Below, piece after piece: positions 20,270 to 58,759 of a stretch of DNA of 64,000 bases; within the stretch, counting starts at the first letter, position 1; the number at the start of each line of letters is the position of its first letter. The position numbers were made by a program, and so were the translations under genes. The DNA comes from Bacilli bacterium. GTDB taxonomy: Bacteria > Bacillota_I > Bacilli_A > RF39 > UBA660. The DNA lies in NCBI GenBank assembly GCA_017406955.1, contig JAFQXM010000003.1:14527-78526 (forward strand), read 5' to 3'. The notes under the pieces are model-generated. The model searched no databases. It was not told the DNA's origin and was given only the letters and a program-made list of their open reading frames with translations.

Positions 20270-21262
20270 TTATATCTCTTCCATAAATATAGTATTTGTT
20301 TCCCAATAACCACTTCTATTAGAACCTAATCTTTTAATAATATTTTGATTAGTTAATCTACTTAAATTATATTTAACACCATCTTCAGTTATATTTAGTT
20401 TCTTTGCTAGCTCTTTTTTTGTTATTGTTGGATTGTTTTTGATATATTTTATAATCTTTAATTGATTATTATTTAATTTAATCTTTTGGGTAGTTTTTTG
20501 GGTAGTTTTATCTAATATATTATTAATTATTTTTAACATAAATTCTATAAATACATTAGCATTACCATTATTATGACACTCAGAAATTGCATCATAATAT
20601 TCTTCTTGATTTAGATATATTTCTTCTTCTATAGAAATATATTCAAACTTTTTATTCCAATTAATTAAAATTAAATAAACCCAGAATCTAGCCATTCTTC
20701 CATTACCATCACTAAATGGATGAATATAGACTAAATAATAATGGAATAAACTTGCTTTTATTATTGGACGAATATTATCTTCTTCTTTTAAAAAATTAAA
20801 TAAACTTTTCATAAGAGAAGGAACTACTATAGATTCTGGAGCAGTATATATAATTTTGTCATCTCTTTTTACCCCTTCACCATGATCTCTATAATAACCA
20901 TTATCATCATCAAAATGTTTCATCATTAAAGAATGAACTATAAAGAAATCTTCTTCACTTTTATAATCAAATTTATTTATGTATTCATATACTTTATTAA
21001 TATTTTTAACTTCTTGGATATCTTTTTTCTTACCTAATACTATCTTATTGTCAATTACATTTTCTACTGATTTTAATGAAAGAGAATTATTTTCTATAGC
21101 TAGGGATGAATAAATGGATCTAATTTTTGATTTATTTTTCAAAGTTTTATTTATATTACTCTCTATAATTATATTTGATAATTTATTTTCTATTTCTTTT
21201 ATCATTTGTAAATTATCATTACTGATATAATAAATAAATTTTAGTGTATCAATGTTTTTCAT
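20270..21262 (-). CDS. Fic family protein with C-terminal winged HTH
   Basis: HPFSDGNGRMAR Fic motif, N-terminal SLAIEN inhibitory-type motif, C-terminal HTH ending G..R.GYW. Confidence 0.9.
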   Translation of the reverse strand: MKNIDTLKFIYYISNDNLQMIKEIENKLSNIIIESNINKTLKNKSKIRSIYSSLAIENNSLSLKSVENVIDNKIVLGKKKDIQEVKNINKVYEYINKFDYKSEEDFFIVHSLMMKHFDDDNGYYRDHGEGVKRDDKIIYTAPESIVVPSLMKSLFNFLKEEDNIRPIIKASLFHYYLVYIHPFSDGNGRMARFWVYLILINWNKKFEYISIEEEIYLNQEEYYDAISECHNNGNANVFIEFMLKIINNILDKTTQKTTQKIKLNNNQLKIIKYIKNNPTITKKELAKKLNITEDGVKYNLSRLTNQNIIKRLGSNRSGYWETNTIFMEEI

Positions 21263-24394: not shown

Positions 24395-24436
24395 ATTTAC
24401 TCTCCTACTTTATTATAACATAAAAAAAGAAAGAGT

Positions 24437-24664
24437 TTATTCTCCTTCTTTAAATTTCTCTACAAATTTAGGAAATATTTCTTTTTCAAAAAGATCTGGG
24501 TCTATTTTAAATATACCATCATCTTTTACTTCAACAAACATAGTATCTGCTTTATTTTCATCGTTTACTAAGTATAAATATGTGTGATCTTTATGATCAA
24601 CTTGTTCTATTACCAAAAACTTTTTATCATTTTCCAACGTCATTGTTTTATCAGTATAATCCAT
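24437..24664 (-). CDS. Small acidic protein, DUF1292-like
   Basis: 75 aa with TLEN.K.F.V....Y.YL pattern; TAATG overlap with the upstream gene. Confidence 0.5.
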   Translation of the reverse strand: MDYTDKTMTLENDKKFLVIEQVDHKDHTYLYLVNDENKADTMFVEVKDDGIFKIDPDLFEKEIFPKFVEKFKEGE

Positions 24665-25767
24665 TATAGACTCACCCCTTTTGGTTTTTCTAATTGTTCT
24701 GGTTTTGCGGCATCTTCTAATATTGATTCTAAATCATTTGGAAGATACTGTTTTCCTAACTCTTCTTCGTAATCTTCATATAATTTATTTGCTTTTAAGT
24801 AATCTACAAATTGATCATATACTCCCATTTTCTTTAAATTTTCTATCTCTTTTTTGTCTTTCATTACTTGTCGAATTGAAGAAATACCAGTTAAAGTGGC
24901 TACTGCTGCTGCAACAACTCCTGCTGTAGCTCCTCCATATTCAAGAATAGGCATTATATCTGAAAAAATTTCCCCTATTGCTGCTGCTCCTGCTCCTGCT
25001 AATATACCTGCTACTCCTCCTGTTGCTAAGCTACTAATTCCTACGTGCTCTAAATACCCTGCTATTTCACTTCTTTGCCCTTTTTTTGCCACTTTGTACT
25101 TTTCGTCATCTTTATCAAGAGTTTTAATAGTTGCTACTCTTTCCATATTATAAGGAATAATATCATCTTCTTTTTCTAAAGTATTTTCTGCTTTTCTAAT
25201 TGCACTTTTTTTCTCTCTATATAAAAGATCTTTTAATTCACTAATATAGTATAATTCAACATATTTTTGTACTTGTTCTTCTGTCATCATATCATATAAT
25301 AAATCTTTTTTCTTAATTTCTTTTATACTATCTTGTATGGATTTTAAATTAAGAATTCTATCTTTTTCTATGATTGATTTTTTTTGTTCTTCTGTCATCT
25401 TATTAAAATATTCTGTTTGGGTTTTTTCTTGTTCTTCATCTGATAAATTATAATAATGTGAATCACCAATTTTTTTATCCCGTAATCGATCATCAACTTC
25501 ATTCATTATAATTCTGTTACGTACTTCTTCTGATAATGAGTTATAATAATCTTCTGATGATAAAAATGGGTTCCCAAATCTTAAATCTTTTCTCATTCTT
25601 TCAGCCTTTAGTTCTTCAAAAGATTTACTTCTATATTTTCTGATTTCTTTTAATAAATAATCAGCTCTTTCTTTTGCTTCCACTTCTGCATCTTTTATTT
25701 TTTTTGTATAATTATTCTCAACTGCAGCCATATCTACTGGATTATCTGCATCTAAATATTTTGACAT
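24664..25767 (-). CDS. Hypothetical protein with Gly/Ala-rich hydrophobic hairpin
   Basis: 367 aa with AGGAGG RBS; segment LATGGVAGILAGAGAAAIG...GGATAGVVAAAVATLTGI; no signal peptide. Confidence 0.75.
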   Translation of the reverse strand: MSKYLDADNPVDMAAVENNYTKKIKDAEVEAKERADYLLKEIRKYRSKSFEELKAERMRKDLRFGNPFLSSEDYYNSLSEEVRNRIIMNEVDDRLRDKKIGDSHYYNLSDEEQEKTQTEYFNKMTEEQKKSIIEKDRILNLKSIQDSIKEIKKKDLLYDMMTEEQVQKYVELYYISELKDLLYREKKSAIRKAENTLEKEDDIIPYNMERVATIKTLDKDDEKYKVAKKGQRSEIAGYLEHVGISSLATGGVAGILAGAGAAAIGEIFSDIMPILEYGGATAGVVAAAVATLTGISSIRQVMKDKKEIENLKKMGVYDQFVDYLKANKLYEDYEEELGKQYLPNDLESILEDAAKPEQLEKPKGVSL

Positions 25768-25794
25768 ACCTATTCCTCCTATTATTCTATCTAA

Positions 25795-25825
25795 ATTTTA
25801 CCCCCCCCCCGAACATTTTTGTCAA
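25795..25825 (-). promoter_or_regulatory. sigmaA-type promoter with G10 homopolymer in the spacer
   Basis: Minus strand TTGACA-AAAATGTTC-GGGGGGGGGG-TAAAAT (19-nt spacer). Confidence 0.75.
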
Positions 25826-26272: not shown

Positions 26273-26809
26273 TTAATTAGTAAGTGTTAATTCTGCAGTT
26301 TCTATTGGTAAATTACTATAGTTAGCATCTGTTAGATTAATAGTTCTAGTAGCTCCTACTTGGTTTTGTATTTCTACTGTAGATGTATTTGTAGTCATTG
26401 TTGTATTTTGAACATTACTATCAAATTCATGATCTCCATCTGATGCAGTTTGTTTATAATATATTACTGGTGCGTTAGTAGCAGCAAATGGAACATTATT
26501 AAATACTGCATCTCCATTACTATCTGTAGTTATTGCATTTCCATACTCTGTACCTGTACTATCTGTTCTAATGAAAGTTGCTCCTACTATTGGAGTACCT
26601 CCAGCTGTTCCTTCTTCTGTTACATGTAGAGTTAATGTACCATTAGCTGCGATTGTAAAATTATAACTATTAGTAACTTGATCTATTGTAACACTATTTG
26701 GATCTATAGTTGTATTATCAAAGCCATTAACATTAGCTTCTACTGTATAAGTATCATTAATTAACTGTGCTGTTCCTGTACCATTAGTAATGTTTACTAT
26801 TTTTGCCAT
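26273..26809 (-). CDS. Prealbumin/SpaA-like beta-sandwich protein, Thr/Asn-rich, no signal peptide
   Basis: Central TLTLHVT...TPIVGATF..TD...TTDSNGDAVFNNVP...YYKQT pattern; AAGGGGG RBS. Confidence 0.7.
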   Translation of the reverse strand: MAKIVNITNGTGTAQLINDTYTVEANVNGFDNTTIDPNSVTIDQVTNSYNFTIAANGTLTLHVTEEGTAGGTPIVGATFIRTDSTGTEYGNAITTDSNGDAVFNNVPFAATNAPVIYYKQTASDGDHEFDSNVQNTTMTTNTSTVEIQNQVGATRTINLTDANYSNLPIETAELTLTN

Positions 26810-27138
26810 AAGATTAATTCCCCCTTTTCAATTGGCAAATTACTATAATAGTAATCTGTTAATAAAAAAGTGATAGGATTATTTTCTATAATACTACGTC
26901 TAAATTTAAATAAATAACATTTCCTAGTTTTATTTACATAAAACCATATATCAATTATTTCATCTTTAGATATTGCTTCTAATCTATAACAATTATTCTT
27001 TTTTAAACATAATTCTAATTCTCCATTATATGTTTTTCCTTCATATATTAATTTATTATTACTATTGTATATTTTTGTATAAGCTTGAAATCTATTATTA
27101 TATCCTAATCCAGTAAATATTAATTTTATTTTTTTCAT
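26797..27138 (-). CDS. Hypothetical protein sharing its C-terminal motif with the downstream gene
   Basis: Ends LTDYYYSNLPIEKGELILWQK; 13-bp overlap with the next gene; AAGGTG RBS. Confidence 0.7.
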   Translation of the reverse strand: MKKIKLIFTGLGYNNRFQAYTKIYNSNNKLIYEGKTYNGELELCLKKNNCYRLEAISKDEIIDIWFYVNKTRKCYLFKFRRSIIENNPITFLLTDYYYSNLPIEKGELILWQK

Positions 27139-27156
27139 TTCCATCACCTTTCATTT

Positions 27157-47072: not shown

Positions 47073-47163
47073 TGGCGGAGCAGGAGAGATTTGAACTCTC
47101 GCGCCGGTTGCCCGACCTACACCCTTAGCAGGGGCGCCTCTTCAGCCTCTTGAGTACTGCTCC
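47073..47163 (-). tRNA. tRNA-Ser(GCT)
   Basis: GGAGCAGTACTCAAGAGG...CCCCT-GCT-AAGGG, long variable arm, TTCAAAT, CCA. Confidence 0.95.
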
Positions 47164-47249
47164 AAGCTCTGCAAATATAATATTACATTATATTTACTTT
47201 GATGTCAATAAATATAAAGAAAAAACTCCTAATAGGAGTTACTTTCAAT

Positions 47250-47326
47250 TGGTGACGAGTACGGAATTCGAATCCGTGAATGCTGCCGTGAAAGGGCAGT
47301 GTGTTAAGCCGCTTCACCAACTCGCC
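47250..47326 (-). tRNA. tRNA-Glu(TTC)
   Basis: CTGCC-CT-TTC-AC-GGCAG anticodon arm, encoded CCA. Confidence 0.95.
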
Positions 47327-47329
47327 ATA

Positions 47330-47406
47330 TGGCGCCTCAACTAGGACTTGAACCTAGGACCCCTTGATTAACAGTCAAGTGCTCTAACCAGCTGAGCTAT
47401 TGAGGC
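47330..47406 (-). tRNA. tRNA-Asn(GTT)
   Basis: CTTGA-CT-GTT-AA-TCAAG, encoded CCA. Confidence 0.95.
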
Positions 47407-47412
47407 AATTAA

Positions 47413-47489
<77 letters not shown>

Positions 47490-47511
47490 ATAAACATTAA
47501 TACTTTATAAG

Positions 47512-47626
47512 TTTACAATACTTTTAAGCTTTTTGCAAGTAAAATTTAACTCGCACTAATAGAATACTATAATTATTATATTAAAGTCAAGAAATAATAT
47601 ACTTTTTTTTATAAAAGTATTGTAAA
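47512..47626. repeat. Perfect 15-bp inverted repeat with 85-bp spacer between divergent tRNA promoters
   Basis: TTTACAATACTTTTA (47512-47526) and TAAAAGTATTGTAAA (47612-47626). Confidence 0.8.
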
Positions 47627-47665
47627 TTTACTAATTTTGTTATAAAATAAATTTGCAAATTAAAT

Positions 47666-47741
47666 GGACTGTTAGCTCAGTTGGTAGAGCAACTGACTCT
47701 TAATCAGTGGGTCTAGGGTTCGAATCCCTAACAGTCCACCA
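47666..47741 (+). tRNA. tRNA-Lys(CTT)
   Basis: ACTGA-CT-CTT-AA-TCAGT, GGTTCGAATCC, CCA. Confidence 0.95.
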
Positions 47742-58602: not shown

Positions 58603-58677
58603 TGGAGCGGATGAGGGAAATCGAATCCCCGTCACAACCTTGGCAAGGTCGTATTCTAACCACTAAACTACATCCGC
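58603..58677 (-). tRNA. tRNA-Gly(GCC)
   Basis: GCGGATGTAGTTTAGTGG...CGACC-TT-GCC-AA-GGTTG...CATCCGCTCCA. Confidence 0.93.
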
Positions 58678-58685
58678 AAAAAAAA

Positions 58686-58759
58686 TGGAGGGGCCTACCG
58701 GATTTGAACCGGTGATCAGGGTGTTGCAGACCCACGCCTTACCACTTGGCTAAAGCCCC
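58686..58759 (-). tRNA. tRNA-Cys(GCA)
   Basis: GGGT-CT-GCA-AC-ACCC, GGTTCAAATCC, TCCA. Confidence 0.93.

Follow-up and report, generated by a model that had tools for sequence, protein, structure and literature searches.

Does the run of ten guanines that separates the two boxes of a promoter at this locus act as a mutational switch for the genes behind it, and, if so, in which state was the switch assembled? In the window (the whole stretch of 64,000 nucleotides that was analysed) the promoter lies on the minus strand. A perfect TTGACA -35 box (25825-25820) is followed by a non-repetitive spacer part of 9 nt, AAAATGTTC (25819-25811), then by the G10 homopolymer that is the presumed slippage site (25810-25801; C10 on the plus strand) and, abutting the run, by a TAAAAT -10 box (25800-25795). 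The spacer is thus 19 nt long. An AGGAGG ribosome binding site (25780-25775) is found 14 nt past TAAAAT and 7 nt before the ATG (25767-25765) of a 367-aa orphan gene (24664..25767, minus strand). The boxes, run and ribosome binding site were read from the sequence, the gene and its start codon from the list of open reading frames. This layout, including the spacer length, is exactly that described by the first-pass annotation. Transcription is predicted to start near 25788, about 7 nt past TAAAAT. Our promoter scan accepts only spacers of 16-18 nt, so the promoter is absent from its output. No Rfam families were found near the locus.

The promoter is flanked by signals that define its transcription unit. 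Upstream, the 117-aa gene ends in an intrinsic terminator (about 25861-25838, minus strand), a hairpin with a 10-bp stem (-9.9 kcal/mol by folding) and a T-tail, which insulates the G10 promoter from read-through. The intergenic region is 107 nt long. Downstream, the stop codon of the 367-aa gene overlaps by one base the start of a 75-aa gene (24437..24664, minus strand; from the list of open reading frames). The terminator scan places a second terminator-like hairpin, of 10 pairs followed by a T-run, at 24451..24426 on the same strand. Because this hairpin follows the overlapping 75-aa gene, we conclude that the promoter serves a two-gene unit. The expected number of terminator-like sites in the region is 0.2, and the scan found two. 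Just upstream of the locus (26273-27147, minus strand) are two overlapping small open reading frames of 178 and 116 aa; the former is Thr/Asn-rich, and its matches to SpaA-like and beta-propeller domains are weak and below threshold, assigning it to no family.

Nothing marks the 367-aa product clearly as a surface antigen: it has no signal peptide (by eye) and could be placed in no family. By eye, the N-terminal two thirds are charged and helical, and are followed by two Gly/Ala-rich hydrophobic segments at residues ~245-305. The protein has no Pfam match above the cut-off and no matches to PADLOC families or PHROGs. An assignment to FBPase_glpX was rejected (20.2 bits, below the 27-bit Pfam cut-off), and the best Atlas matches (feature score 0.80, structural TM 0.36) are both uninformative. 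The 75-aa protein has no Pfam family, and its similarity to a DUF1292 protein encoded behind a G-tract promoter of the sister species G002 is not significant (E = 0.70). Elsewhere in the window we identified a distant Fic/DOC protein fused to a winged-helix domain (20270-21262, minus strand; Fic 5.3e-19, HTH_24 7.8e-11) and two ordinary tRNA clusters (Ser, Glu, Asn, Ile and Lys at 47073-47741; Gly and Cys at 58603-58759).

Long runs of G or C are rare in the genome from which the window comes (G000), a metagenome assembly of 1,135,903 bp in 15 contigs, with ~25% GC and an estimated completeness of 93.7%. A genome-wide homopolymer census returned five such runs of length 6, none of length 7 or 8, two of length 9 and two of length 10. 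The run at this locus, first noted as the longest of the window, is in fact the joint-longest of the whole genome. The four runs of at least 9 compare with an expectation of 0.020 for independent bases and 0.067 under a first-order Markov model (Poisson probability of four or more, 8e-7). All four lie in the same arrangement: terminator, TTGACA, 9-10 nt, G9 or G10, TAnnnT, ribosome binding site and ATG. The chance that a given run would start 7-10 nt after any of the 299 TTGACA sites in the genome is ~5e-4. The presence of the G-runs in promoters of this genome is not due to chance.

The genes behind these four promoters have little in common. In addition to the window locus, with its G10 tract, 19-nt spacer and 367-aa orphan, we identified a G9 tract (C5:87956, spacer 19 nt) ahead of a 297-aa acidic orphan, a second G9 tract (C5:155600, spacer 18 nt) ahead of a signal-anchored leucine-rich-repeat (LRR) protein of ~1,050 aa (Pfam LRR_EndoS and LRR_4), and a G10 tract (C6:14007, spacer 19 nt) ahead of a prepilin-type, pilin-like protein (N_methyl, 41.8 bits). 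The -35 box is a perfect TTGACA in all four; the -10 box is TATACT at three sites and TAAAAT at the window locus. Neither the downstream genes nor the flanks of the promoters are related to one another, and apart from the boxes and the G-run the four promoters have no motif in common. The 297-aa protein, like the 367-aa protein, has no signal peptide (by eye) and no family, and no match to it was found in any of the five same-genus genomes searched. The 5' end of the pilin-like gene occurs twice in the assembly (G000:C6:14040-14186 and G000:C11:1-165), with ~165 identical bases from the ribosome binding site onward. The promoters of the two copies differ: that on C6 carries the G10 tract and that on C11 is tractless, with an extended -10 (TGTTATAAT). 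Both copies are at contig ends, and represent either two paralogues that begin identically or alternative forms within the population.

What spacer length do the ordinary promoters of this organism use? We searched for a good -10 box (TAnnnT, 5 of 6 matches) 13-23 nt downstream of each of the 299 TTGACA sites. At 17 nt the count rises sharply to 32 sites, versus 2-11 at other spacings, while a control with the reversed hexamer is flat, at 3-11 sites. Since ordinary promoters peak at 17 nt, we take this to be the working optimum in the genome; by the same measure the four tract promoters, at 18, 19, 19 and 19 nt, are off-optimum and 1-2 nt too long. The initial suggestion that a G8 tract would give the window promoter an optimal 17-nt spacer therefore agrees with the genome's own promoters. 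Judged by spacing, the G10 promoter would be in a low or OFF state.

Related cassettes were sought in 41 genomes, including that of the window (24 others from the same family and 16 from other families). The pattern TTGACA-N7-12-G8 matched in eight genomes: the window's own, 6 of the 24 from the same family and 1 of the 16 from other families. The backwards control pattern had no matches in those eight genomes and one in G038, which itself has no cassette match. G024 has nine copies of TTGACAAATATGC-Gn-TATCCT, one of them cut by a contig end. The tracts of its eight complete copies number 9, 9, 10, 11, 11, 13, 14 and 14 guanines, giving spacers of 16-21 nt. G011 has 18 sites with closely related, TTGACAGAAGTGYCT-like pre-tracts and runs of G9-G12, many of them at contig ends. 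The pilin genes of G014, two in tandem, have tracts of G12 and G10. The genes behind the cassettes of the relatives mostly have pilin-like (MKKGFTLIELL...), signal-anchored or lipoprotein-like N-termini by eye; Pfam support for cassette-driven genes is confined to N_methyl (G014) and LRR (G000).

De-duplication, which merged four copies in G011 (leaving 14 sites from 18) and one in G033 on the basis of identical flanks, left 38 complete sites in the eight genomes. Their spacers have a mode of 19 nt (18 sites), with 9 sites at 20 nt, 4 at 18 nt, 3 at 21 nt and 2 each at 16 and 17 nt. The most frequent tract is G10 (19 sites), followed by G9 (7) and G11 (6), with two sites each for G12, G13 and G14. 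Tract length is the main difference among otherwise similar promoter cassettes of the relatives. With only 2 of the 38 sites at 17 nt and a mode of 19 nt, either nearly all copies are OFF in the bulk of the population, or promoters of this class have their optimum at a length other than 17 nt.

To place these cassettes among all long G-runs, G9 was searched without regard to context in the same 41 genomes, and matches were found in 22. Every run of at least nine guanines is a TTGACA promoter site in G000 (4/4), G002 (2/2), G004 (1/1), G005 (2/2) and G011 (18/18), 27 of 27 in total; the corresponding figure for G033 is 7 of 15. Other genera of the family arrange the run differently. G013, a genome with 98 overlapping G9 matches, has a variant of the design: at the three sites sampled (L207-L209) the run directly follows TTGACA and is itself followed by an extended -10 (TGTATAAT), and tracts of G9, G11 and G12 give spacers of 17, 18 and 19 nt. 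In G016, from another related genus, 13 of 16 sampled sites share a different conserved cassette (...GCAAYT-G9-TGCRATACA), for which the -35 box could not be placed. Of the 38 runs of nine or more in this genome 37 are exactly G9; thus, long G-runs in the family are not always length-variable between copies. The G016 cassettes (e.g., L192-L206 and L211) precede small signal-peptide genes.

At the window locus itself, the tract can be compared with an orthologue and with other assemblies. Matches to the 367-aa protein were found in 2 of the 41 genomes, its own and that of the sister species G002, where the identity is 48%. The orthologous promoter is TTGACAAAAATGCTC-G10-TACAAT, and its spacer is again 19 nt. 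From TTGACA through the first 16 codons, the window (25720-25825) and the orthologous locus (L012, G002:C1) are near-identical, and the DNA upstream of TTGACA is unrelated. A near-identical 5' cassette despite only 48% protein identity points to constraint on the cassette or to its exchange. The tract is conserved between the two species, and the comparison of the two sequences gives no indication of a length change. The stretch is present in five DNA runs from two studies, and in no RNA run. Assembled contigs of four of these runs (X1, X2, X4 and X5) were compared with the window. Those of X1 and X2 span the tract and show 0 differences, although these runs are possibly the source of the assembly and contigs hide minor variants; no contig of runs X4 and X5 spans the tract. 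Metagenome contigs returned no matches either to an exact-flank pattern around the tract or to a looser pattern anchored on the ribosome binding site and first codons. The proposal of a slipped-strand contingency promoter, made when the locus was first annotated, is partly supported: the architecture, the enrichment of runs in promoters and the related cassettes of G9-G14 favour it, and at the locus itself G002 also has G10 and the X1 and X2 contigs agree.

We predict that this is probably a sigma-A (sigma-70 type) promoter with a hypermutable G10 tract in its spacer, in which slippage alters spacer length and thereby promoter strength, G10 being the low or OFF form and G8 the ON form. Slipped-strand mispairing at replication would add or remove guanines, and the changed spacer would alter the contact of RNA polymerase with both boxes. 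G10, at 19 nt, would be weak or OFF, G9, at 18 nt, intermediate, and G8, at the canonical 17 nt, ON. The promoter would drive both genes of the unit, the 367-aa protein (an orphan and putative membrane protein) and the 75-aa protein. Together, the four tract promoters could produce stochastic ON/OFF combinations of the 367-aa orphan, the LRR protein, the pilin-like protein and the 297-aa orphan across the population. Whereas the anatomy, the enrichment, the 17-nt peak of ordinary promoters and the length differences among related cassettes were observed, slippage at the locus, its reversibility and an effect of tract length on expression are inferences. Slippage may be damped by mismatch repair, since the genome has a gene for a MutS-type protein; a search for MutL_C in the assembly, which is 93.7% complete, found none. 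Because the 367-aa and 297-aa products have neither signal peptides nor a family, they are not typical contingency genes.

The G-run could instead be a fixed-length element, recognised by an activator or acting structurally, in a regulated promoter for which 19-20 nt is the working geometry, comparable to promoters whose boxes have to be brought into register by the twisting action of an activator. The 19-nt mode among the relatives and the scarcity of 17-nt spacers speak for this explanation, as do the retention of G10 in the G002 orthologue along with the whole promoter-to-start region and the near-invariant G9 of G016. The identically flanked cassettes of G024 fit it poorly, since a fixed geometry would not tolerate a spread from G9 to G14 and from 16 to 21 nt. 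By inspection, AAAATGTTC plus G10 has no dyad symmetry, and the four promoters share no motif other than boxes and run. Nor do the 13 neighbouring open reading frames include a MerR-type regulator above the Pfam cut-off, or any other regulator apart from the distant Fic-winged-helix protein, and the locus therefore does not resemble the MerR-type promoters with spacers of 19-20 nt. We consider a fixed element unlikely.

Two further explanations carry much less weight with us. Tract length might shift the frame of a tiny leader gene rather than the spacing of the promoter, as a 9-codon minus-strand frame (ATG TTC GGG GGG GGG GTA AAA TTT AGA TAG) starts at an ATG within AAAATGTTC and crosses the run, and an equivalent frame exists in the G002 orthologue. 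This ATG has no Shine-Dalgarno sequence and lies inside the spacer, upstream of the predicted transcription start, and in the other three tract promoters no ATG precedes the run. With an ATG at this locus and its orthologue only, we rejected the leader gene as very improbable. It is scarcely credible, finally, that the run arose as an error of sequencing or assembly, or by chance as a neutral sequence with no function. Two-colour sequencing does produce poly-G errors, and the genome was assembled from a metagenome, in 15 contigs; yet the run lies mid-contig, is reproduced in the contigs of two sequencing runs and recurs as G10 in a second species, at the orthologous promoter. As one of four runs in the same promoter context, where 0.02-0.07 would be expected, it is also poorly explained by chance. 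An assembly artefact had been named at the outset as something that would overturn the proposal; no obvious one is apparent, given that the X1 and X2 contigs (perhaps the source of the assembly) and the G002 orthologue carry G10.

The slippage-controlled promoter that we favour has close counterparts in known systems. In Mycoplasma hyorhinis, each vlp gene of a surface-protein family has a poly-A tract in its promoter spacer, leading to combinatorial ON/OFF expression. The relatives G011 (18 sites) and G024 (9 copies) resemble this system in having several genes with the same cassette, whereas the tract promoters of the window's genome drive four unrelated genes rather than one family, and the tract is G rather than A. 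The fimbrial subunit genes fim2 and fim3 of Bordetella have poly-C promoters that require the activator BvgA, have no good -35 box and use the tract to space an activator site from the -10 box. Here too a homopolymer is found in a pilus promoter, one of the four tracts preceding a pilin-like gene, but the perfect TTGACA at all four sites sets them apart from the activator-dependent fim type.

The anatomy is closest to that of porA and tp0126. In Treponema pallidum, the tp0126 promoter has a poly-G between its two boxes and is transcribed best when the spacer measures 17 nt, the poly-G of Neisseria meningitidis porA works likewise, with 17 nt best, and poly-G tracts of T. pallidum vary in length within isolates (PMC7864442). 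The porA promoter shares with our locus a homopolymeric G tract within a sigma-70 type spacer and expression set by the departure from 17 nt (predicted here). It differs in several respects: our host is an uncultured, Bacilli-like gut organism with a reduced genome and 25% GC, the tract here always abuts the -10 box after a unique stretch of ~9 nt, and the spacer as assembled exceeds the optimum by 2 nt, where that of porA matches or falls short of it, with switching a prediction. The case of tp0126 (an OmpW homologue) is similar in its spacer poly-G and in the presence of several genes with such tracts per genome, and different in that length variation and reporter activity were measured in T. 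pallidum, where they are predicted here; the products at our sites, moreover, include orphans without export signals. Features of the porA/tp0126 type that we found are a homopolymer between the boxes upstream of a gene, an excess of such runs over base composition and, in the relatives, length differences between conserved cassettes, for which G016 is a counter-example. Most likely, this is a known mechanism, with the anatomy of porA and tp0126, in a new and uncultured lineage of gut Bacilli. A literature search found no account of homopolymer phase variation in RF39/Tenericutes gut bacteria, which is no proof of absence.

The design may extend well beyond this family. Scanning one genome per species for TTGACA-N7-10-G9-TAnnnT returned at least 123 loci; those listed include Treponema and other spirochaetes, Saccharibacteria, Lachnospiraceae, Christensenellaceae, Planctomycetota and Streptococcus, along with records titled 'uncultured Bacilli' and 'uncultured Tenericutes'. 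Among the loci listed, those nearest to the window's genome in a translated comparison are from these last two groups of records, and we therefore take the organism to be, in all likelihood, a gut member of the Bacilli with a reduced genome, akin to the former Tenericutes/RF39. Some of these matches must be due to chance, above all in GC-rich genomes. Among the matches listed, the pre-tract is most often 9 nt (50 of 124 distinct sites), a length at which G8 equals a 17-nt spacer. Spacers of 16, 17, 18 and 19 nt account for 18, 13, 38 and 55 of the listed sites, respectively, the pattern being able to detect only 16-19 nt, and 74 of the 124 have a ribosome binding site and start codon within 120 nt downstream. 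The arrangement TTGACA-N-G9/G12-TAnnnT was also seen in cultured streptococci (L104, a Streptococcus pneumoniae record, and L079, Streptococcus rupicaprae).

We tentatively suggest, as a possibility that we hold with less confidence than slippage at this locus, that a modular, default-OFF promoter design (TTGACA, ~9 nt, Gn, TAnnnT; ON at G8 and OFF at G9-G10) is present in many lineages of uncultured gut bacteria. In this Bacilli-like family with reduced genomes it might be the only home of long G/C runs, and might allow Mycoplasma-like combinatorial switching of pili, surface proteins and membrane proteins, with the 367-aa orphan as a contingency gene of a new type.

For a few pathogens (Neisseria, Treponema, Bordetella and Mycoplasma), slippage of homopolymers within promoters is standard textbook material; to our knowledge, promoter homopolymer switching has barely been described for uncultured gut commensals. 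The tract provides a simple, testable marker, as the number of guanines can be counted in reads. In sister genera, as many as 18 cassettes of this kind precede genes for pilins and surface proteins. If the switching is real, it would bear on evasion of phages and of the immune system, on strain-level differences between metagenomes and on assembly breaks at such genes, and these small-genome gut bacteria would vary their surface stochastically.
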